A DNA stretch of 15,714 nt from Candidatus Hodarchaeota archaeon (GTDB lineage Archaea; Asgardarchaeota; Heimdallarchaeia; Hodarchaeales; Hodarchaeaceae), in NCBI GenBank assembly GCA_016840035.1, contig JAEOTC010000197.1, forward strand, positions 1 to 15,714, read 5' to 3'. The notes under the pieces are model-generated. The model did no database searches. It was given only the letters and a program-made list of their open reading frames with translations, and was not told the origin of the DNA. Of this stretch, positions 3,955-15,670 are shown piece by piece; position 1 is the stretch's first letter; each line of letters opens with the position of its first letter. Made by a program: the position numbers and the translations under genes.

Positions 3955-5100
3955 TTACTTTTCTGATTTATCAAAAAACTTTGTGAGGGCCAATCTTTTG
4001 TCTGTTTGGTCAGATTTTTCAAAATAGGAAGTGTAGTACCTGATATATTCCGTAAAAACTGTTGTATCTTGTCTTAAATTATCGAGAACATCTTGAATAA
4101 TCCTTATCTCATTATACTCCTTCTTAGTAAATGTGAACTTCTTAAGCTTCAGCAGTTCATCGAAAGACGTATCCTTGAATATACTCACATACTTGACTAT
4201 CGTCTGTTCTAAATGAGGAAGTAAATTGACTGGTTGAGGAGTAAAGAAGTGTCCAGTAATTCTTTCGTGAATTACCGTTTTACGGGGAAATTTTTCATAT
4301 CCTATTCCACGGATATTAAGTATTCGTGCGGCTGCAAGTGTACTACCTGTCCCTGCAAAGGGGTCTAGGATATTTGTTGCTCCAGTTAATTTGATACACT
4401 TATACGGAAGTTCGATGGGAAATGGTGCCTCGTGACCTTTTTTAATAGTACTTCCAGTTGTTCGAGTATAAGGAATAAACCAAACGTTTCCAGCATCTCG
4501 AAGATCTGATTGTGCATATCTTCCGATATTTGATTTATCTGCATATGGAATTCCAATCGCCTGGGGATTAATCTGATACTCCTTCCGATCTTTAACAAAG
4601 ATATAAATATACTCAAATATATTATTTAATCTCCTACTTCTACCAGAAGGTGTATAATGACCTCTACCTAGAAATGATTTTAACCAAATTATGGTTTGAA
4701 GGCGAATAAATCCACCTTGTGTTACTAGATCTGCAATCCGTTCTGAAAATCCCTGGTTATTCGCTGAATCACCAACGTTTAAGAAAAACATGCCTTTAGA
4801 GGAAAGAACTCTGTAACATTCTGACCAAACTTTTGAGAGTAAAGTTTCATACTCTTCTTCCGACTGTTGGTCATCATAAACATTTCCTTTGTCGTCCGAA
4901 TATACTTTACTCCTATTGTAGGGAGGGGAGGTCACAATTAAATCAATAGATAAGTCCTTAACCTCAGTCATGTCCTCTGAACTTTTATAGTAAATAACTT
5001 GTTGCCCAAATTTGTCTAAATCACTTTCAGGTTTCATAGGAATGCCAATTTTATTTTGGAAAATGGGATTGAGAGTACCTTTCTCTTCTGAAAAATTCAT
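3955..5100 (-). CDS. Beta-class N4-cytosine/N6-adenine DNA methyltransferase (orphan); start may be the downstream Met (MKPESD)
   Basis: Catalytic motif IV DLIVTSPPY precedes the SAM-binding motif ILDPFAGTGST (beta order). Also IIWLK, FEYIYIF, NVWFI, HEAPFP. Confidence 0.9.
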   Translation of the reverse strand: MNFSEEKGTLNPIFQNKIGIPMKPESDLDKFGQQVIYYKSSEDMTEVKDLSIDLIVTSPPYNRSKVYSDDKGNVYDDQQSEEEYETLLSKVWSECYRVLSSKGMFFLNVGDSANNQGFSERIADLVTQGGFIRLQTIIWLKSFLGRGHYTPSGRSRRLNNIFEYIYIFVKDRKEYQINPQAIGIPYADKSNIGRYAQSDLRDAGNVWFIPYTRTTGSTIKKGHEAPFPIELPYKCIKLTGATNILDPFAGTGSTLAAARILNIRGIGYEKFPRKTVIHERITGHFFTPQPVNLLPHLEQTIVKYVSIFKDTSFDELLKLKKFTFTKKEYNEIRIIQDVLDNLRQDTTVFTEYIRYYTSYFEKSDQTDKRLALTKFFDKSEK

Positions 5101-5316: not shown

Positions 5317-5431
5317 CACGGAAAATACTTCTGTTCTGCATTACGAGAAAAATCTAATTCACATGATCTCCTCCGTCACCCTATATCTTGCTGAATAATT
5401 TTTTTCATGTTTGCATCAGAAAAAGTCCGTG
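5317..5431 (+). ncRNA. Candidate structured 5' leader (long imperfect hairpin) of the SSB mRNA
   Basis: Nested complementary segments: 5317-22/5426-31, 5329-33/5417-21, 5337-40/5412-15, 5345-53/5398-5406 (one G-U), 5357-61/5392-96, 5362-67/5385-90 (one mismatch). Confidence 0.5.
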
Positions 5432-5457
5432 AACCATTTCAAACTATCGTGAGAAAA

Positions 5458-6102
5458 ATGAACGAACATCAAGAATCTCAAGAAAACAAAGAGGAAGAAG
5501 AAACTCAAGAAGCTCAAGAAACCGAGAAATCTGAACCCTCTGAAAAAACTGAAGTATCTGAACCTTCCTCTGAAAGTCCACAGGAGACCGAGGAAACTCT
5601 CAATGTGATGAAAATCAGTGATTTGTCTCCTTTCGAAAGAAAACTTCAAGTCACATTTTGTGTTGTTGAAAAAGGCGAATCTCGAACAATTGTCAGCAAA
5701 AAAACTAATGAAGAACACAATCTTGCCGATTTAAAGGTAGGAGATGAGACAGGGACTATTACTTTGACTCTCTGGGATGAAACCATCGATCGGGTAACTG
5801 AAGGTGGTACTTTTGTCTTAAAGAACGGGTATGTAAATGTATTTCAAAGCCAGATGCGATTAGCGCTAGGTAAATGGGGCTCAATTGAGGATACTGAAGA
5901 AACAATTTCACTTGATGATGTCAATACAGAAAACGACCGATCCAAAGAACAACATGAAGACAGAAGACGACGAAGACGATCATATGATCGCGGTGGCGGT
6001 CAACGCCGATCCTCATATGGCGGTGGAAGATCCTATCGTGGCCGAGATAGTTCTGGCTATCGTGGAAAATCAGATCGTCAAGACCAACAAGAACGTTGGT
6101 AA
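5458..6102 (+). CDS. ssb: Single-stranded DNA-binding protein, single OB fold (crenarchaeal SSB/hSSB1-like), with an acidic N-tail and an Arg/Gly/Ser-rich C-tail
   Basis: KISDLSP...VTFCVVEKGE...VGDETGTITLTLWD...LKNGYVNVFQSQMRLALGKWGSI matches the Sulfolobus-type SSB OB fold. ATG 5458 is preferred over 5407, which lies inside the predicted leader hairpin. Confidence 0.88.
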   Translation: MNEHQESQENKEEEETQEAQETEKSEPSEKTEVSEPSSESPQETEETLNVMKISDLSPFERKLQVTFCVVEKGESRTIVSKKTNEEHNLADLKVGDETGTITLTLWDETIDRVTEGGTFVLKNGYVNVFQSQMRLALGKWGSIEDTEETISLDDVNTENDRSKEQHEDRRRRRRSYDRGGGQRRSSYGGGRSYRGRDSSGYRGKSDRQDQQERW

Positions 6103-6382: not shown

Positions 6383-7753
6383 ATGGATGAATCTAGAATC
6401 ATTATATCGGACGTACAAATTATGGGAAATGTAGTAGGAATACGCTTGGAAGATAAGAATAAATGGGAAAAAAGGACACCACTCGTTCCAGATCATGTGA
6501 GGGAACTAATATCTACAGAATCCTTGGATTTTGTCGTTCAGTCCTCACCTATTCGTGCATTCGATGATTCTGAGTATAAATCTGCTGGAGCTACCGTTTC
6601 ATCCGGTTTAGGTAATGCGAATATAATTTTCGCTATCAAAGAAATTCCAGTTAATCTATTAGAATCAAATAAGGTTTATATATTCTTCAGTCATACCGTG
6701 AAGGGCCAAAAATATAATATGCCCTTATTAAAACGAATGCTTGAATTGAATACTACATTGATTGATTATGAGAAGATAGTGGATGACAGAGGGTTTCGTC
6801 TTATTTATTTTGGGAACTATGCTGGATTAGCGGGTATGAATCAAGCTTTATGGGCCTATGGGGAACGAGTAAAGGAGCTAGAAGGTCTCAAAACTCCATT
6901 CTTAGACTTGAAACATACATATGAATATACCGACCTTGATAAAATGAAAGAAGCAATCTCCGAAATCGGAAGGGAAATCACAGAAAAAGGATTGCCTTCA
7001 GAATTAGTTCCAATGATTGTGGGATTTGCTGGATATGGGAATGTTTCACGTGGAGCACAGTCGATATTAGATCTCCTACCAGTAGTTGAGATAGATCCTA
7101 CGGAATTAAGGGATCTCTTTGTTAATAAACCAGATGAATTCTCTTCTAAACATGTATATAAAGTGGTATTCAAGGAAGAGCATATGGTAAAATCTAAAAC
7201 GGGAAAAGATTTCGATTTACAAGATTATTATCAACATGGGTCTGAAAAGTATATAGGAATATTTGAGGAATATATCGAATACTTATCGATCCTTATGAAT
7301 GGAATCTATTGGAGCGAGAAGTATCCTCGACTTCTTACTAAAGAACATGCCAAGAATATGTTCCAATCAAAAATTATGGTAAGATTACACGTAATTGGGG
7401 ACATATCATGCGATATTGAGGGAGGTATTGAACCCACCCTTATGGCTACAGAACCTGATAACCCTGCTTTTGTCTATAATCCATTTTCGGAAAAAGGAGT
7501 ACTAGGATTATCAGGAGAAGGTTTAGCAATAATGGCAGTTGATAATCTCCCCTGTGAGTTGCCCAAAGAATCATCTCGTAATTTTTCAACAACACTAAAA
7601 CCTTATATTCCAATAATAACCAAAGCCGATTATACAAAATCCTTTGATGAGTTAGGTTTGCCTTCTGTTATTAAGAATGCCGTAATTGCGCATCAAGGTC
7701 AACTTACTCCAAACTATGAATATTTAAACAAGTTTCTTGAACAAATAGATTAA
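6383..7753 (+). CDS. Lysine-ketoglutarate reductase (LKR/LOR; AlaDh/PNT fold), homologous to the N-terminal domain of AASS; probable start ATG 6422
   Basis: VGIRLEDKNKWEKRTPLVP, FFSHTVKGQ.YNMPLL, LIDYEKIVDDRG.RLIYFG.YAGLAGM, GYGNVSRGA, NGIYW...YPRLLT, DISCDIEG, MAVDNLPCELPKESS. Confidence 0.9.
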   Translation: MDESRIIISDVQIMGNVVGIRLEDKNKWEKRTPLVPDHVRELISTESLDFVVQSSPIRAFDDSEYKSAGATVSSGLGNANIIFAIKEIPVNLLESNKVYIFFSHTVKGQKYNMPLLKRMLELNTTLIDYEKIVDDRGFRLIYFGNYAGLAGMNQALWAYGERVKELEGLKTPFLDLKHTYEYTDLDKMKEAISEIGREITEKGLPSELVPMIVGFAGYGNVSRGAQSILDLLPVVEIDPTELRDLFVNKPDEFSSKHVYKVVFKEEHMVKSKTGKDFDLQDYYQHGSEKYIGIFEEYIEYLSILMNGIYWSEKYPRLLTKEHAKNMFQSKIMVRLHVIGDISCDIEGGIEPTLMATEPDNPAFVYNPFSEKGVLGLSGEGLAIMAVDNLPCELPKESSRNFSTTLKPYIPIITKADYTKSFDELGLPSVIKNAVIAHQGQLTPNYEYLNKFLEQID

Positions 7754-7760
7754 AGAATGT

Positions 7761-9125
7761 GTGATATTTATGAAGAAAGTATTAATTTTTGGTGCAGGAA
7801 TGGTTGCTGGTCCTCCTGTAAAGTATTTGTTAGAAAGAGAGTTTCAGGTAATTGTAGCCAGTCGTACACTACAAAAAGCCGAAGCATTGATTAATGATCA
7901 TCCTAACGGTATAGCGAAAGCTTTCGATATTACTCAAGCTACCGATGAGGAGCTTGAGACACTAGTTAAGGAATGTGATTTAGCTGTAAGCCTTCTACCA
8001 TATATTTATCATGTGAAAGTAGCAAAAGCTTGCATTAAACATAGAAAACATATGGTAACTACTTCATATGTGAGTCCAGAGATGAAAGCACTGGATACTG
8101 AAGCAAAAAATGCATCTGTTACGATATTAAATGAAATTGGAGTGGATCCAGGAATAGACCATATGTCAGCTCAGAAAATTATTGATGCAATCCATGATAA
8201 AGGAGGCAAAATACATTCCTTCACTTCCTACACAGGCGGATTACCTGCCCCAGATGCTAATAATAATCCCTGGGGATATAAACTATCATGGTCTCCTCGC
8301 GGAGTAATCTTAGCTGGACGTAATTCTGCTAAGTATCTAAAGAATGGGGAAGTGGTCGAGATTCCAGGTGAAGATTTATTTGATCATTATCTTCCATTTC
8401 CAGTACATGAAAAAGGACCTGGAGATTCTGAAGAACTCGGTTTATTAGAGGGATACCCTAATAGGAACTCAATTGAACCATATATTGACGTTTATGGTAT
8501 TCCTGAAACTAAAACAATGATTCGTGGAACTTTAAGAAATCCTGGGTGGTGTAATACTATGAAGAAGATAGCTGATATTGGTTATCTGAATTTAGAAGAG
8601 GAAGATTTTCCTTCAGGATTCACGTATGGACAATTGATAAATAAACTGCTTGATAAACCACTAGATTCAAATTCTAAAGAAAACTTAATGGCAAAGTTTG
8701 GTTTAGATTCCTCTGACGATGTCATCAAACGATTTGAATGGATGGGTTTACTAGGAGATGATACACTTCCAAAAACGAAGATCTCACCTCTTGATGCGTT
8801 ATGTTATCAATTTGAAGAGCACCTCCAATATGCTTCGGGTGAAAGGGACATGCTTGTGATGGTACATCAATTTGAGTATGCTACGGCGGACTCTAGCAAA
8901 GAGAAAATTACCTCAACGATGATTGATTATGGAATTCCGAATGGAGATACCTCCATGTCTCGAACTGTTGGCTTACCAGCAGCTATTGGAGTGCGGATGA
9001 TTTTAGATGGAACAATATCTGATCGTGGGGTATTAGTGCCTGTCAAAAAATCAATATATGAACCAGTTTTGAAAGAACTAGAAGAAATGAACATTGGTTT
9101 TAATGAAAAATTGGAGAAATTATAA
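7761..9125 (+). CDS. Saccharopine dehydrogenase (glutamate-forming)/saccharopine reductase, Lys9/AASS C-terminal domain type; probable start ATG 7770
   Basis: KKVLIFGAGMVA Rossmann motif, VSLLPY..H, MVTTSYVS, NEIGVDPGIDHM, SYTGGLPAP..NNNP.GYK.SWSPRG, YPNRNS, RGTLR, MSRTVGLPAAI. Confidence 0.93.
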   Translation: MIFMKKVLIFGAGMVAGPPVKYLLEREFQVIVASRTLQKAEALINDHPNGIAKAFDITQATDEELETLVKECDLAVSLLPYIYHVKVAKACIKHRKHMVTTSYVSPEMKALDTEAKNASVTILNEIGVDPGIDHMSAQKIIDAIHDKGGKIHSFTSYTGGLPAPDANNNPWGYKLSWSPRGVILAGRNSAKYLKNGEVVEIPGEDLFDHYLPFPVHEKGPGDSEELGLLEGYPNRNSIEPYIDVYGIPETKTMIRGTLRNPGWCNTMKKIADIGYLNLEEEDFPSGFTYGQLINKLLDKPLDSNSKENLMAKFGLDSSDDVIKRFEWMGLLGDDTLPKTKISPLDALCYQFEEHLQYASGERDMLVMVHQFEYATADSSKEKITSTMIDYGIPNGDTSMSRTVGLPAAIGVRMILDGTISDRGVLVPVKKSIYEPVLKELEEMNIGFNEKLEKL

Positions 9126-9145: not shown

Positions 9146-9979
9146 CTATTTTTGTTTTAAATCACAGTATGTTGCGTAAATTGTCGTATCTTCCATAAAA
9201 CCTAATTTTTTATAAAGTTGAATAGCCGCATCATTAGATGATTCAACCCAGAGATAAATCTCTCTGATTAATCTGTCTATTAAGATTTCCTGACATAGTT
9301 TCGTCAATGTTTTATGTGAATATCCTTGTTTGCGTTCTAGAAGCCTAGTTTCAATACCCCTGACAATTGCAAATGAATGTGTTTCATTGTGTAACAGATG
9401 AGGTGCTGCGGCAAAACTGACAATGTCGTCATCTTTGAGATACCCATAAGCAATTCCTTCAGACAAATGCCTGTATCGTTTAGGAACTTTGATACGCTCA
9501 TGGGGGAAGCGTACGACAGAATGAAGGTCACTCCATCCTGGAGTGAATGTCTCAGTTGAAATTTTCAAGGTAATGTATGTATTATAGTTCGGTGTTTTTT
9601 CATTTGTCTCTAGAGATCTAAAATTTGTAAATCGCTGTTGGATACTAGGCCACAGGTTCTTATCATGGAACATTAACACAATATTCGTATCGAACCAACG
9701 AATCTGTTTCATTAAGGACCAGATATTATCACTCGAGAGGTGGTACTTGTTTTCATAGTGAACAATATAATCAAAGGGGTTCAGAGAATAAACATATTCG
9801 ACTTCCTCGCGTTTTTCACTTAGATACCAGTGTAAATAACATGTTTGCGACAAAGATTCTTGGTTCAGATATGAAAGAAATTTTTGATATCTCTTATTAT
9901 GGGAACTAGCAAATGGACGACGTAGTCGATCCCTGACCACATTATTAACCTCGAAATCCGTACTCAATCTTTGATACAT
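9146..9979 (-). CDS. GNAT-family N-acetyltransferase (C-terminal GNAT domain)
   Basis: VRGIETRLLERKQGYS (acetyl-CoA motif A, R/QxxGxG/A-like) and LWVESSNDAAIQLYKKLGF. Confidence 0.85.
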   Translation of the reverse strand: MYQRLSTDFEVNNVVRDRLRRPFASSHNKRYQKFLSYLNQESLSQTCYLHWYLSEKREEVEYVYSLNPFDYIVHYENKYHLSSDNIWSLMKQIRWFDTNIVLMFHDKNLWPSIQQRFTNFRSLETNEKTPNYNTYITLKISTETFTPGWSDLHSVVRFPHERIKVPKRYRHLSEGIAYGYLKDDDIVSFAAAPHLLHNETHSFAIVRGIETRLLERKQGYSHKTLTKLCQEILIDRLIREIYLWVESSNDAAIQLYKKLGFMEDTTIYATYCDLKQK

Positions 9980-9996
9980 TTATGAGTATTAATACT

Positions 9997-10887
9997 TCAC
10001 CCATCAAAGACTTTAGCCTTTTTGTTATTCTTCTCTGAAAGGGGATGACCGAGATCGTAGGATTTTCGTAAATGCTCCAAACTTACATGGGTGTACAATT
10101 GAGTTGTTGAGAGTGAGGCGTGTCCAAGTAGTTCTTGGATTACTCGAATGTCAACTGCATTAGCGAGTAAATGAGTGGCAAAAGCATGTCTCAAAGTATG
10201 AGGGGTAAGTTTCTTATCTTGTAAGTTGGCTTGCTCCCGATATTTCTTCACTAAGCGTTGGATAGATCGCGAGGTTAATCTATTCCCAGAACGATTCAAT
10301 ATCAAAGCAGAAGAGGAAGAATCATTACGTCTTTTCTCCAAATACTCCTCTAAGATTGGGATAAGAACATCAGGAAGAGGGATTAACCGATCTTTATTTC
10401 CTTTACCTCCAACGATTCTTAGCATACGACTATCCAGATCTATGCAATCAATGTCTAGGTTACTGAGTTCTGAGACACGCATTCCAGTCCCGTAAAGAAG
10501 AAACAGAATTGTTCGGTCTCGTAAATTATCAGGAGTCTTTAAAAGATGTAATGTTTCCTCTACAGAAATTGTTTTAGGAAGACTCTTTGGAATTTTGGGT
10601 GATTCTATATTTTCGGCTGGATTAGCAGATATATATGCTTCTTTTTTCAGAAATTTGTAGAATGACTTTAATGAGCAAATTTTTCTGTGTAAACTCCGTG
10701 GGGAGTATTGTTTATTTCGTTTTAGGTGTAAAAAGAATCGACGTAAATCGGTTGTGGTTCTCAATTCTATAGATCGTTCATTATTAAAATTATTGAACAT
10801 TTGAAGGTCATAAGCGTATTCTCGAATTGTCTTCGGTGAATATCCCTTTTCTACTTCGAGCCAGACCAAGTAATCTTGAATTAGCAT
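9997..10887 (-). CDS. xerA: Tyrosine recombinase XerA/XerC-XerD type
   Basis: N-terminal SAM-like domain (EKGYSPKTIREYAYDL; RKICSLKSFYKFL) and catalytic R-K-H-R-H-Y residues: GMRVSEL, GKGNKDR, TPHTLRHAFATHLL, IQELLGHASLSTTQLYTHV. Confidence 0.92.
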   Translation of the reverse strand: MLIQDYLVWLEVEKGYSPKTIREYAYDLQMFNNFNNERSIELRTTTDLRRFFLHLKRNKQYSPRSLHRKICSLKSFYKFLKKEAYISANPAENIESPKIPKSLPKTISVEETLHLLKTPDNLRDRTILFLLYGTGMRVSELSNLDIDCIDLDSRMLRIVGGKGNKDRLIPLPDVLIPILEEYLEKRRNDSSSSALILNRSGNRLTSRSIQRLVKKYREQANLQDKKLTPHTLRHAFATHLLANAVDIRVIQELLGHASLSTTQLYTHVSLEHLRKSYDLGHPLSEKNNKKAKVFDG

Positions 10888-10962: not shown

Positions 10963-11478
10963 CTATTCATAGATTCTGTTTACCAGATTTGCTTTCCCCA
11001 GCTCTTCATCATAATGAATCAATTCTGCCCGATGAAGTTCATGAAGTGAATGGAGAACGATTGCAGCGGAGAAACCAGTAGTTTTTGTCAGCTCCTCACG
11101 AGTCATCTCCGATTTATCTCCGTGTAATAAGTAAAGAATCTTAGCATGCGGTTTTCCAGTAAATACTTTTTCTAATAGGGTGATATAAATTCCTAATAAT
11201 TGTTTAATATCTAATGAGGTTTCCTGTTGCCCAGAAAGTTCTGTAAATAACTCGGAGATCTTTTTAAATTCTGTTTCAAGTGAAATATATTCAAACTCCA
11301 ACTGTTGTTTCTGGATATTTGCCTGATTCAATTTCTCTTCTCGTTCCCGTAGAGCGTTTTCTTTCTCTTCTAATTCCCTCTGAGAGTTGCTTAATCTGTT
11401 TTCCATTGAAACGATTGTATTTTTTACTCGTTCAATTGTGGGAATGATCTCTTCTATCTTTAGGGGGTCATCTTCCAT
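10963..11478 (-). CDS. Coiled-coil protein with a C-terminal winged helix-turn-helix
   Basis: Heptad-rich E/Q/K/L segment (aa ~10-85), then HAKILYLLH..KSEMTREELTKTTGFSAAIVLHSLHELHRAELIHYDE...L (wHTH pattern). Confidence 0.75.
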   Translation of the reverse strand: MEDDPLKIEEIIPTIERVKNTIVSMENRLSNSQRELEEKENALREREEKLNQANIQKQQLEFEYISLETEFKKISELFTELSGQQETSLDIKQLLGIYITLLEKVFTGKPHAKILYLLHGDKSEMTREELTKTTGFSAAIVLHSLHELHRAELIHYDEELGKANLVNRIYE

Positions 11479-12676: not shown

Positions 12677-13690
12677 TTGAACAACTATGACTTAGAATTA
12701 AATCGAATTCTTCAAAAGATTAGAGAGAATAACTATAATTCCGTATTAGTACAATTTCCAGAAGGGATGTTAGATAAACCTCTCAGTAAAGTAAAGGAAT
12801 TTCTTTCTAAAGAAAATATTGAGGTTTTTGTTGTGGGAGATCCAAGTTATGGAGTCTGTGACTTGGCTGTAGACCTCGCGAAGAAACTTAGATGTGATTT
12901 ACTAATCCATTTTGGTCATTCAGATTTTGGATTTAGTCATCAAATAAGCTTAGCCAAAACGGAGTCAGTGGATATTATTCTAGTTCCTGCTTACTATAAT
13001 CCTCCACAGGAACCAGATTTGAATTTGATTCTCAATGAAATTAAGAAATACGGTTGGAAAACCATTGGTTTAGCTGCAACTGTTCAACATATGAGAACTT
13101 TAGAAAAACTTGAGCAGGACCTGAATGAAAATACGTTTAAATCAATTAGATATGATTCAGGTCAGGTAATTGGGTGTAATGTTACTACACTTCAGAAGGG
13201 AAGCAAAGAATGTGATGGATTTGTTAGTCTTCATGCGGGATTTTTCCATACACATGGAATTTTGTTGAATACAAAAAACCCACTAATCCAATACAATCCC
13301 TATACTACCGAAATTACAATCTATTCAGAGGAAGATCGAAAAAAAGCAATTCAACAGCGGTTTACAGTACTTTCCAGTGCAAAAAAGGCAATTAAATGGG
13401 GCATTCTTGGAAGTCCCAAACTAGGTCAACTTAATCAAAATTTTATATCAAGAGCTCATTTAATATTCACAGAAAATAATATAGATGCCTTAACAGTCAT
13501 TGCGGAGAATATTAATCCTCATATGGTAGCAAACTTTAGTGAAATTGATGCATGGGTAGTAACTGCATGTCCACGAATTGCGATAGATGATAAAATTAAT
13601 TATACAAAGCCTATTATCACGTTTAAAGAATTTTTATATCTTTTTGATTATCTAAACTGGGAAGATTTATTGGAACACGGTTTCTTCTAG
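12677..13690 (+). CDS. dph2: 2-(3-amino-3-carboxypropyl)histidine synthase (diphthamide biosynthesis Dph2/Dph1 family)
   Basis: VLVQFPEGM, DPSYGVCD, LIHFGHS, TVQH, GQVIGCN, FH, K.GQ, VVTACPRIAIDD. All three Fe-S cysteines are present. Confidence 0.93.
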   Translation: MNNYDLELNRILQKIRENNYNSVLVQFPEGMLDKPLSKVKEFLSKENIEVFVVGDPSYGVCDLAVDLAKKLRCDLLIHFGHSDFGFSHQISLAKTESVDIILVPAYYNPPQEPDLNLILNEIKKYGWKTIGLAATVQHMRTLEKLEQDLNENTFKSIRYDSGQVIGCNVTTLQKGSKECDGFVSLHAGFFHTHGILLNTKNPLIQYNPYTTEITIYSEEDRKKAIQQRFTVLSSAKKAIKWGILGSPKLGQLNQNFISRAHLIFTENNIDALTVIAENINPHMVANFSEIDAWVVTACPRIAIDDKINYTKPIITFKEFLYLFDYLNWEDLLEHGFF

Positions 13691-13820: not shown

Positions 13821-14774
13821 TTGACGGAAATACCAATAAGTGAGCTTTCTACCCTCAAATCGAAGAAAGACAAAATCATTCATCTGAAGTCAGAATCTCT
13901 TCGCGGATCCGATTTACTTATCATTCTTTCTGATGAGGGAGGGTTACCTGTTTATACGAAGTTCGTTCAAGTGAATGAATATGGTGATGTCACGTACAAG
14001 GATACTCCATCTACACGAGCTAGTAACGAAAACATTGTATTAGTTTCTGGTTTACTTGAAGCCATTATTCAACTTAAAGACATAATCAGACCAACCCTCA
14101 CAGAGCTAACTAGTAAACCAAATACCCCGATTTATGTCGACTATGCAAAAGCAGAGAATGGAATAAGCCTACTGTCAATGTCGACGACTCCAGAATTTCA
14201 GCAACTACCAGGCCACTTATTGAGTCAGTATGTACCTTTTCAATCTGGTACTAATTTCTCTGTTTCGGATTCTTGGGAAGAAAATTTTGAAGAAGCGATA
14301 GAGAGTCCATTAGGTGAGGATGCAGCTATTTACAAGCATATCCTCGGTAAAATCAAATTAGATTTAGCTGATTTTATATCTTTCATTCTGGTTTATGACT
14401 CCGAAGGTAATTATCTATTTTCTACAGCAAAGCAGCAGGAATTAAAGGGAGTAACAGACCCATTATTGAATTCAATCTCTCAATACATAAAGAGAGAATA
14501 TTTATTGCAGAAATATCGGGAAAATCTCACATTAATCGGAGCAAAACGACTCCATGATTCAGTGATTTGGCATTTCAAGTGTTTTGATAAGATTTTTGTG
14601 TTTTTTACATATCTTATTCCTGATCTTTATGATTTTGATACCCTAAAAACTGAAATGATCACTTTCATCACAAATAACTTAGAAAAGTTCATTAAAGCGA
14701 CTAAATTATACTCTTCACCCCCTGGATCCATTTCTAGTAATATTAAGACGACTCGTTTTACATTTTTGTCTTAA
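13821..14774 (+). CDS. Putative tandem longin/roadblock-like domain protein
   Basis: Two repeats of hydrophobic strand-turn-G-strand then helix: LLIILSDEGGLPVYTK...LVSGLLEAIIQL and FILVYDSEGNYLFST...PLLNSISQYI. Each is followed by beta strands and a helix. Confidence 0.55.
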   Translation: MTEIPISELSTLKSKKDKIIHLKSESLRGSDLLIILSDEGGLPVYTKFVQVNEYGDVTYKDTPSTRASNENIVLVSGLLEAIIQLKDIIRPTLTELTSKPNTPIYVDYAKAENGISLLSMSTTPEFQQLPGHLLSQYVPFQSGTNFSVSDSWEENFEEAIESPLGEDAAIYKHILGKIKLDLADFISFILVYDSEGNYLFSTAKQQELKGVTDPLLNSISQYIKREYLLQKYRENLTLIGAKRLHDSVIWHFKCFDKIFVFFTYLIPDLYDFDTLKTEMITFITNNLEKFIKATKLYSSPPGSISSNIKTTRFTFLS

Positions 14775-14875
14775 ACGATAGATATTGTGAAATTCGCAAG
14801 CTGAGAAATATTTTTAATGATGTAACGTCTTAATACAGAGTAATACTTCTAGAATGCGAAAAGAAATGAATTAGA

Positions 14876-15670
14876 ATGTCAAGTGAAAGATTAGATGATC
14901 CCAAAGTAGAATTTGCTAAGTCAGGACGCTCAACATGTCGTGGTTGCCATGAAAAAATCCCTAAGGATATACCTCGGATTGGAATTCCGTCCCCATTTAC
15001 AACACCCAAAGGAGAGGTGATCACCTCTTATCGATATTATCACGTAAAATGTACCCCACGTAATGAAGTTCCAAGTGTAGTTAATTATTTAACCACCAAT
15101 ACTCTTGATTCTTCAGATTTACAACAAGATACTTTAGCCATCCTGAATGAAATGTTGAAAGGAAAGTCATCAGAGGGGTCTTCGTCTGAACAACCCATTC
15201 AGAATCCCTTTCTGGAGTATGCAAAAAGTTCGCGTGGTAAATGCCAAGAATGCGAGGAAAAAATTGAGAAGGGAACAATTCGTGCTGCTCAACCTACAAT
15301 AATTGAATTAGATGATGGTAGGAAATTTGTGTCACAAAAATATGCACATATCGATTGTTTCCTTAACAAAGCTAGAGATCCCAAAGATATGCTAGAAAAA
15401 CTCTTTAAAATATCCCTCGAAAAGAAGACGATTTCTGAAGATGAGGAAGATCAAATACGTGTGAATTTTAGTGATCTAGATCAAAAATCTACTGGAGTAG
15501 ATGATATCATTGCCACTATTGGAAATGAACCAGTTGAGATAACGCAATTACGTGACCTATCAAAAGAACAAGGTGTAGATTATAAAATAGTCCAAAAAGC
15601 TATTGATAGAGGTTTAATGAGAGGGGAGTATTTTATGCCTACACCTGATACGGTGCAAAAATTGGATTAA
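14876..15670 (+). CDS. Tandem PARP-type zinc finger (2x zf-PARP) protein with a C-terminal winged helix; no catalytic domain
   Basis: VEFAKSGRSTCRGC...RIG...YYHVKC (C21,C24,H56,C59) and LEYAKSSRGKCQEC...IR...YAHIDCF (C123,C126,H158,C161). C-terminal VEITQLRDLSKEQGVDYKIVQKAIDRGLMRGEYFMPTPDTVQKL. Confidence 0.88.
   Translation: MSSERLDDPKVEFAKSGRSTCRGCHEKIPKDIPRIGIPSPFTTPKGEVITSYRYYHVKCTPRNEVPSVVNYLTTNTLDSSDLQQDTLAILNEMLKGKSSEGSSSEQPIQNPFLEYAKSSRGKCQECEEKIEKGTIRAAQPTIIELDDGRKFVSQKYAHIDCFLNKARDPKDMLEKLFKISLEKKTISEDEEDQIRVNFSDLDQKSTGVDDIIATIGNEPVEITQLRDLSKEQGVDYKIVQKAIDRGLMRGEYFMPTPDTVQKLD

Follow-up and report, generated by a model that had tools for sequence, protein, structure and literature searches.

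PARP-type zinc fingers are textbook eukaryotic sensors of DNA strand breaks, and the locus described here raises the question of what a pair of them does in an archaeon of the Hodarchaeales, an order put forward as the nearest archaeal relative of eukaryotes, and whether this pair is the forerunner of the one at the N-terminus of PARP1. The DNA studied (hereafter the window) is a whole 15.7-kb contig of 15,714 nucleotides, from a genome of 4.3 Mb that is 87% complete. Near its end, on the plus strand, a CDS at 14876..15670 (stop codon at 15668-15670) encodes a 264-aa protein that reads, from the ORF list and the translation, as a first finger, a linker, a second finger and a winged helix; small minus-strand ORFs (40-65 aa) within the gene were taken as chance. 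The original prediction, which had called the protein a stand-alone sensor, placed the end of the feature at 15400, so that both fingers fell inside it and the last 90 residues outside. The protein does stand alone in that a Pfam scan of its 264 residues returned no enzyme domain, no MCM, AAA or OB domain, and no match to PADR1 (Zn3), BRCT, WGR, the regulatory domain or the catalytic domain, but it is more than a finger pair, residues ~203-264 being a winged helix of MCM type. PF26927, a precomputed annotation on two homologues, was not reproduced by the Pfam scan. Two zf-PARP fingers joined to an MCM-type winged helix are a real, native, conserved and unstudied architecture, and the protein is a previously unstudied variant of the PARP-type finger proteins.

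The zf-PARP assignment of the original prediction was borne out by the PF00645 search, which matched the protein in two stretches (E 4.5e-24, 85.4 bits against a cut-off of 39.3), and a six-frame PF00645 scan scored the fingers apart at 42.7 and 45.7 bits. Finger 1 (residues 10-95; 14903..15160, plus strand) carries the ligands C21, C24, H56 and C59, and finger 2 (residues 111-197, with the best Pfam stretch at 114-168; 15206..15466, plus strand) carries C123, C126, H158 and C161. Each CxxC...HxxC unit is preceded by a variant of E[FY]AKSxR (EFAKSGR at residues 12-18, EYAKSSR at 114-120), and translation and alignment agree on both the ligands and these motifs, as had been predicted. All eight zinc ligands are invariant across 15 homologues of 46-64% identity, as are R18, R34, R120 and R136, the four arginines singled out beforehand, together with F41, G46, K15/S16, K117/S118, K30, K132 and Y156. 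In the phmmer alignment the finger-2 residues K117, S118, R120, K132, R136 and Y156 match K119, S120, R122, K134, R138 and W157 of PARP1 F2, which are DNA-contact residues there (Eustermann et al. 2011, PMC3094755). The same alignment pairs residues 10-165 with human PARP1 10-166 as one stretch (phmmer; 2n8a, E 7.8e-15), so the description of the two proteins as almost in register was accurate. The HMMER alignment sets F41 against S41 of PARP1 and not against F44; from the local sequence (SPF versus SPMF), it is nevertheless plausible that F41 is the equivalent of F44. Of the 87 positions in the Pfam model, each finger matches the first 55-57 and no more, and the helical half of these fingers is therefore divergent.

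Structural modelling agreed with this picture. An AlphaFold2 model of the 264-aa protein, built on the 15-sequence alignment, reached a mean pLDDT of 84, with finger 1 folded as a three-stranded sheet and two helices (62-74, 80-95) and finger 2 bearing helices at 159-164, 169-183 and 188-197. This secondary structure agrees with the zf-PARP fold, an antiparallel three-stranded sheet followed by two helices, in which the second ligand pair starts helix 1 (PMC3094755). Between the fingers lies a flexible linker rich in Ser, Gly and Glu (residues 96-110; 15161..15205, plus strand), whose alignment columns are poorly conserved and of which residues 97-108 are disordered in the model (pLDDT <50). 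Foldseek returned, as its best matches, the two PARP1 fingers on DNA (2n8a, E 2.2e-10) and 9mi8, then isolated Zn2, Zn1 and ligase III fingers; the probability was 1.00 to PARP1 Zn1, to Zn2 and to ligase III, neither Zn1 nor Zn2 being favoured. The spacing from first Cys to first Cys is 88-98 in bacterial tandems and mostly 95-123 in PARP1 orthologues, and the PARP1-like register of the archaeal protein arises because two domains of ~90 aa and a disordered linker of ~12 aa yield that spacing. Judged by sequence, both zf-PARP fingers are genuine and have kept their DNA-contact residues.

Such fingers turned out to be widespread, contrary to the expectation that zf-PARP is mainly eukaryotic. Among 301 Asgard genomes, each at least 70% complete, 95 encode zf-PARP: 19 of 21 in the Hod family itself, 23 of 31, 7 of 9 and 3 of 3 in three other families of the Heimdall class, and 41 of 77 in one family of another class, with no zf-PARP found in more than 20 further Asgard families of the same sample. 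An exhaustive profile search gathered 869 proteins at E <= 1e-3, and these include Pfam-verified PARP1s, plant ZDP multi-finger proteins (which rank high), a Heimdall family of 309-327 aa with Heimdallarchaeota LC_2 OLS28228.1, and many bacterial proteins of ~180 aa that consist of two fingers and nothing else. Stand-alone bacterial tandems occur in at least 101 genomes, mostly Myxococcota, and also in Planctomycetota and Obscuribacterales; one such gene adjoins a sigma-54 activator gene, and some JGI records name these proteins 'exonuclease VII small subunit'. In the LC_2-type family an OB domain of RPA/SSB type sits between the two fingers (F1 - OB - F2; profile versus PDB Replication factor A, E 1.4e-10), and UCE14218.1 combines F1, an Ssb-like OB, F2 and a winged helix with the same type of tail, its OB being 58% identical to the Ssb-like gene at 5407..6102 of the window. 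A further set of Asgard proteins of ~230 aa carries a single finger that the Pfam model matches over 86 of 87 positions (62-67 bits), behind an N-terminal domain for which an Atlas search gave no usable match. No description of PARP-type or zf-PARP fingers in archaea, Asgard or Heimdallarchaeota was found in the literature searched; Perina et al. 2014 (PMC4245714) report no PARP genes in archaea and do not discuss stand-alone fingers.

Evolutionarily, the central issue is whether the Hodarchaeales pair (Hod F1 and F2) is the PARP1 pair, that is, whether it and Zn1-Zn2 go back, in register, to one ancestral F1/F2 duplication and it stands for the PARP1 N-terminus as it was before fusion, as the original prediction had suggested. 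We extracted single fingers from all protein groups and placed 95 of them in a tree (IQ-TREE LG+C20+F+G4 PMSF, 74 columns), and built a second tree in which the tails were extended (to 87 columns) and a further five single-finger proteins of Asgard archaea were included; both finger alignments are short. The 95-finger tree has a 98/86 split with Hod F1, Hod F2, bacterial F2 and LC_2 F2 on one side and PARP1 Zn1, Zn2, ZDP, bacterial F1, LC_2 F1 and the Asgard single-finger proteins on the opposite side. In the 87-column tree both Hod fingers are separated from all eukaryotic fingers by a 99/91 split, and the eukaryotic fingers (Zn1, Zn2 and ZDP) are united in a single clade (100/97), whose neighbours are the Asgard single-finger families (91/80) and not the Hod tandem. 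Hod F2 groups with bacterial F2 and LC_2 F2 (98/96). The position of Hod F1 in the finger trees is unstable: it is placed on the F2 side (89/66; bootstrap 87-89%), yet scores best on F1 profiles (61.4 and 61.7 bits on those of bacterial and LC_2 F1). In a tree of concatenated tandems, the Hod pair falls with the LC_2 family (89/84) and not with PARP1. Taken at face value, the trees would derive Zn1 and Zn2 from an Asgard-like ancestor with a single finger, by duplication on the eukaryotic stem, and would make the Hod tandem a separate lineage.

The profile scores, the contrast in Pfam coverage between the Hod fingers and the Asgard single fingers, and the tandem tree agree with this separate-lineage reading. 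Hod F1 obtains 41.0 bits on a PARP1-Zn1 profile and 51.5 on the Zn2 profile, which for a first finger runs against shared register, and Hod F2 obtains 41.9 and 51.8; taken together, the profile scores show no register preference. PARP1 Zn1, for its part, reaches 73.5 bits with the profile of bacterial F1 and 40.7 with that of Hod F1. The 'finger-specific words' that had been read in PARP1 order, IPKD..R in finger 1 and EKIEKG..R in finger 2, lost their force when orthologues were compared, since they are not conserved among them. The position of P in human IPKD is A in 7, D in 5, E in 4 and P in 2 of 24 PARP1 Zn1 fingers, KD and KG stand at 10:10 in Zn1 and 11:8 in Zn2, and the P occurs in 3 of 22 Hod F1 fingers. 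On these counts, K-I-x-K-[GD]-x-x-R is a general zf-PARP motif, and the match to the human words in this sequence is coincidental.

In favour of in-register ancestry stand the unbroken alignment to PARP1 10-166, the host order, with its proposed proximity to eukaryotes, and a register-swap likelihood test on the concatenated tandems, which preferred the same finger order in all eight comparisons. Two of these comparisons alone gave a convincing swap result, Hod versus the bacterial tandems (delta lnL 36.7; fraction of bootstraps <=0, 0.011) and Hod versus all groups (33.5, 0.04), whereas the direct comparison of Hod with PARP1 yields a preference of just 12.5 lnL (fraction 0.20). AU tests do not reject the grouping of all F1 against all F2 (p 0.153 in the first tree set, 0.086 in the second), a clade of Hod F1 with PARP1 F1 (HOD_F1+PARP_F1, p 0.088), or Hod and eukaryotic fingers as one clade (p 0.254), and in-register ancestry is therefore disfavoured rather than excluded. 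Weighed together with the two splits that put the Hod fingers with bacterial and LC_2 second fingers, and with a eukaryotic clade nearest to the Asgard single-finger proteins, we consider it unlikely that the pair is the pre-fusion ancestor of the PARP1 N-terminus. In its boldest form the idea would make the tandem module older than eukaryotes and the Hod protein a surviving in-register relative of PARP1 Zn1-Zn2, one that works without ADP-ribosylation and couples the detection of nicks and gaps to MCM/Orc through a borrowed MCM tail, a scenario that we hold to be improbable.

The part of the protein beyond the original interval is a winged helix (residues ~203-264; 15482..15667, plus strand), which a second model resolves at pLDDT 88 and which is homologous to the C-terminal winged-helix tail of MCM. 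BLASTP pairs its last 63 residues, in an ungapped alignment at 27% identity and E 1e-4, with the final 63 of the MCM encoded in the same genome, an intein-bearing protein of 1149 aa identified as MCM by Pfam. A profile of the family's C-terminus matched the C-terminal end of a long finger-less ORF in 22 of 22 genomes of the genus (E 1.8e-7 for the source genome's own long ORF) and elsewhere gave only two weaker stray matches; these long ORFs are mostly 690-1345 aa, match at E 1e-9 to 1e-3, and are Pfam-confirmed as MCM in the source genome only. Structurally the domain is generic: VIA-align placed it closest to the P. abyssi Rpa2 winged helix (Z 8.7), followed by the MCM winged helices of S. 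solfataricus (2m45, Z 7.8) and M. thermautotrophicus (2ma3, Z 7.5), with Z-alpha, DprA and Fur within one Z unit. Foldseek with the isolated C-terminal model found none at E <= 1e-3, just weak winged-helix matches, and no PDB entry came out below E 0.2 in a profile search based on the C-terminal alignment; the fold assignment is based on VIA-align together with the sequence homology. The winged helix is a detached, paralogous copy of the MCM tail that is not attached to an AAA+ helicase core.

Functionally, we posit that the protein is a non-catalytic DNA-discontinuity sensor and adaptor of the Hodarchaeales, a reading that we regard as fairly probable. The two zf-PARP fingers, each folded round a CCHC zinc site and held together by the flexible linker, would grip the DNA backbone at nicks, gaps and ends through basic and aromatic residues, as in PARP1 and DNA ligase III, and both together would bind strand breaks or junctions of single- and double-strand DNA. 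Of the two fingers of PARP1, it is F2 on which the DNA affinity rests. The output would probably be carried by the C-terminal winged helix, the paralogue of the MCM tail, which may contact a replication or repair partner or may add affinity for double-strand DNA; break recognition would thereby be tied to the replication machinery. The winged helices of MCM and RPA2 serve as modules for protein interaction, and that of Sulfolobus MCM reportedly contacts Orc1-1. The sensor reading is supported by the zf-PARP score of 85.4 bits with its invariant ligands and contact positions, and by the sister proteins that hold a single-strand-DNA-binding OB between the same fingers; the adaptor reading is supported by the MCM-tail homology of the winged helix, a domain that is generic in fold and therefore could simply bind DNA. 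By analogy with the fingers of PARP1, ligase III and ZDP we infer that DNA binding would be break-selective, and we infer likewise that the winged helix acts as the adaptor. The earlier suggestion of a nick or break sensor is, on the sequence evidence, plausible.

A protein with a winged helix might instead be a sequence-specific transcription regulator, whose winged helix would recognise an operator and whose fingers would strengthen DNA binding or respond to a signal, and winged helices are indeed the commonest regulator fold in archaea, with Fur, PadR, IclR and MarR-type domains among the structural matches here (Z 6.4-7.5). By sequence, though, the MCM tail is what the domain matches across 22 genomes, with no regulator among the hits, the finger gene has no conserved divergent target gene or operon at its side, and in all studied cases zf-PARP fingers are structure-specific rather than sequence-specific (PMC3094755), so that we judge a regulator decidedly unlikely and retain the sensor and adaptor described above.

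The genomic setting leaves little doubt as to the origin of the gene. NCBI labels the nearest proteins as PARP-type zinc finger-containing protein of Candidatus Hodarchaeales, and 19 of the 21 other genomes in the genus encode a member of the finger family. At least 14 related Asgard genomes, among them two complete chromosomes (CP070695, CP070760), keep the gene order Dph2, unknown 317-aa protein, finger gene, GDSL, with finger-protein identity down to 31%. Upstream of the finger gene, an AT-rich intergenic spacer of 101 nt (14775..14875, plus strand, from a reading of the sequence) is a candidate location that may hold the gene's own promoter. Before the spacer lies the gene for the 317-aa protein (13821..14774, plus strand; synteny in 14 related loci, 51-86% identity), which is Asgard-only and always found immediately upstream on the same strand; it has no Pfam family, and a weak Roadblock/longin match was its only lead. 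The final 127 bases of the window overlap the end of contig C260, from which the downstream genes could be read as a convergent GDSL hydrolase gene, a hypothetical gene and a UbiA gene. The neighbours Dph2, the 317-aa protein and the convergent GDSL hydrolase provide no repair or replication context. As for the rest of PARP1, WGR (PF05406) was found in 0 of 22 genus genomes, and so was the PARP catalytic domain (PF00644), a weaker negative than that for WGR since the control genomes were likewise silent; a profile search limited to longer proteins returned eukaryotic PARP1s only.

Contamination of the bin with eukaryotic DNA, or a recent horizontal transfer from a eukaryote, both of which the original prediction had kept in view and which would fit PARP1, ligase III and ZDP being the best-known carriers of zf-PARP, can be set aside as extremely improbable, given that the gene order is preserved in 14 or more relatives among the Asgard genomes, complete chromosomes included, that GC is flat (0.33-0.38), and that introns are absent, the fingers fall outside the eukaryotic clade in the trees and the tail is derived from an archaeal MCM. 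The finger gene is native and archaeal.

A group of archaea put forward as the nearest to eukaryotes thus keeps a conserved, enzyme-free tandem-finger protein with an MCM-derived winged helix, and the family is a candidate link of break sensing to replication without poly(ADP-ribose). The evolutionary question has shifted at the same time: zf-PARP is common in Asgard archaea and in Myxococcota, and the family that the eukaryotic fingers adjoin in the best tree is the Asgard single-finger one (~230 aa) rather than the Hod tandem.

Among known systems, the closest comparison is with the F1-F2 pair of human PARP1 (2n8a, 4av1, 3od8, 3odc, 9mi8), which is the top match of the Hod protein both by sequence and by fold, at 26-30% identity. 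Both are tandem CCHC zf-PARP fingers on a flexible linker with near-identical spacing, and they have in common the K-S-x-R loop, the beta-sheet Arg and the aromatic contact residues. The Hod protein differs in having no Zn3/PADR1, BRCT, WGR, helical or catalytic domain and an MCM-type winged helix instead, and its fingers show no phylogenetic pairing with Zn1 and Zn2 in the best trees. The finger of DNA ligase III alpha (1uw0) is the same zf-PARP domain and matches Hod finger 2 at E 5.5e-6; however, the fingers of ligase III and of the plant ZDP 3'-phosphatase are parts of enzymes, being joined to a ligase and to a phosphatase, whereas the Hod protein has no enzyme domain. The bacterial tandems of ~180 aa, themselves unstudied, are likewise an enzyme-free finger pair, and their register is common with that of the Hod pair by the swap test cited above (delta lnL 36.7, 0.011), but they have no winged-helix tail, their first-Cys spacing is shorter (88-98), their hosts are bacteria, and the second-finger motif is A-P-S-G-R where the Hod family has [AS]-K-S-S-R. 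The Heimdall F1-OB-F2 proteins (the LC_2 type and UCE14218.1) share with the Hod protein its two finger types and their order, and differ from it in the RPA/SSB-type OB inserted between the fingers and, in the LC_2 type, in being without a winged helix. Finally, the C-terminal winged helix of archaeal MCM (2m45, 2ma3) has its fold in common with the Hod tail, which is in addition homologous in sequence to the tail of the organism's own MCM; in the Hod protein, however, this domain is separated from the helicase and fused to PARP-type fingers.

The contig encodes, in addition to the tandem zf-PARP protein, an Ssb-like OB-fold protein (window 5407–6102, + strand; PF21473), whose OB domain shares 58% identity (E 1e-47) with the OB located between the two zf-PARP fingers of P0021 (UCE14218.1, from Heimdallarchaeota bin272), a relative's protein in which the second finger is followed by a winged helix. 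P0021 is a natural fusion joining the Ssb-like OB and zf-PARP gene families. Likewise, in a Heimdall-class family of 309–327 aa, two zf-PARP fingers flank an OB fold of RPA/SSB type (PDB Replication factor A, E 1.4e-10); these proteins lack the winged helix, and examples are found at locus L008 (1489–2439) and in Heimdallarchaeota LC_2 (P0038, OLS28228.1).

Directly 5' of the finger gene lies a gene for a 317-aa protein (window 13821–14774, + strand; no Pfam family), and this placement is found in 14 related genomes. The neighbour is Asgard-only and, at 51–86% identity among relatives, more conserved than the finger protein itself; a weak lead connects it to Roadblock/LAMTOR2/longin proteins (Atlas 0.78–0.82). 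On the other side, the last 127 bases of the contig (window 15588–15714) match one end of contig C260 of the same genome (locus L017, 9874–10000) exactly, in reverse-complement orientation, and the two contigs therefore join. Gene order over this join (GDSL hydrolase, 262-aa hypothetical protein, UbiA, hydantoinase A/B) agrees with the synteny of relatives. The contig further encodes an N6/N4 DNA methylase (3955–5100, −), an AlaDH-like and saccharopine dehydrogenase pair (6383–9125, +), a GNAT acetyltransferase (9146–9979, −), a XerC/D-type integrase (9997–10887, −), a small ArsR-like HTH protein (10963–11478, −), and Dph2 (12677–13690, +). The genome's MCM (1149 aa; contig C25, with locus L018, 286–3735, and locus L119, 607–1830, covering the MCM–Orc1/Cdc6 region) contains an intein with LAGLIDADG domains, and its gene is directly 3' of an Orc1/Cdc6 gene that is highly conserved across the genus (78–99% identity); this genome has four further Orc1/Cdc6 paralogues.

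Beyond these architectures, Asgard proteins of ~160–235 aa (locus L003, 1030–1725; loci L134–L138) carry a single C-terminal zf-PARP finger after an N-terminal domain of ~95–165 aa that had no match in Pfam or Atlas, and are present in 23/31 and 41/77 genomes of Asgard families f3 and f11. In the careful IQ-TREE phylogeny of individual fingers, the fingers of this family lie closer to the eukaryotic zf-PARP fingers, taken together, than those of any other prokaryotic group (support 91/80). The third-ranked protein in the profile search, P0019 of the plant Mikania micrantha (KAD0585577.1; 1376 aa, 11 zf-PARP fingers), is an extreme example of the ZDP-like multi-finger arrays. Bacteria, too, have zf-PARP proteins: at least 101 genomes from Myxococcota, Planctomycetota and Obscuribacterales encode stand-alone tandems of ~180 aa (loci L035–L114, and P0168 on L019). 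The label "exonuclease VII small subunit" that some JGI records give them seems to be a mis-annotation. Against the profile of the bacterial-tandem first finger, PARP1 Zn1 reaches 73.5 bits, more than against any Asgard tandem profile.
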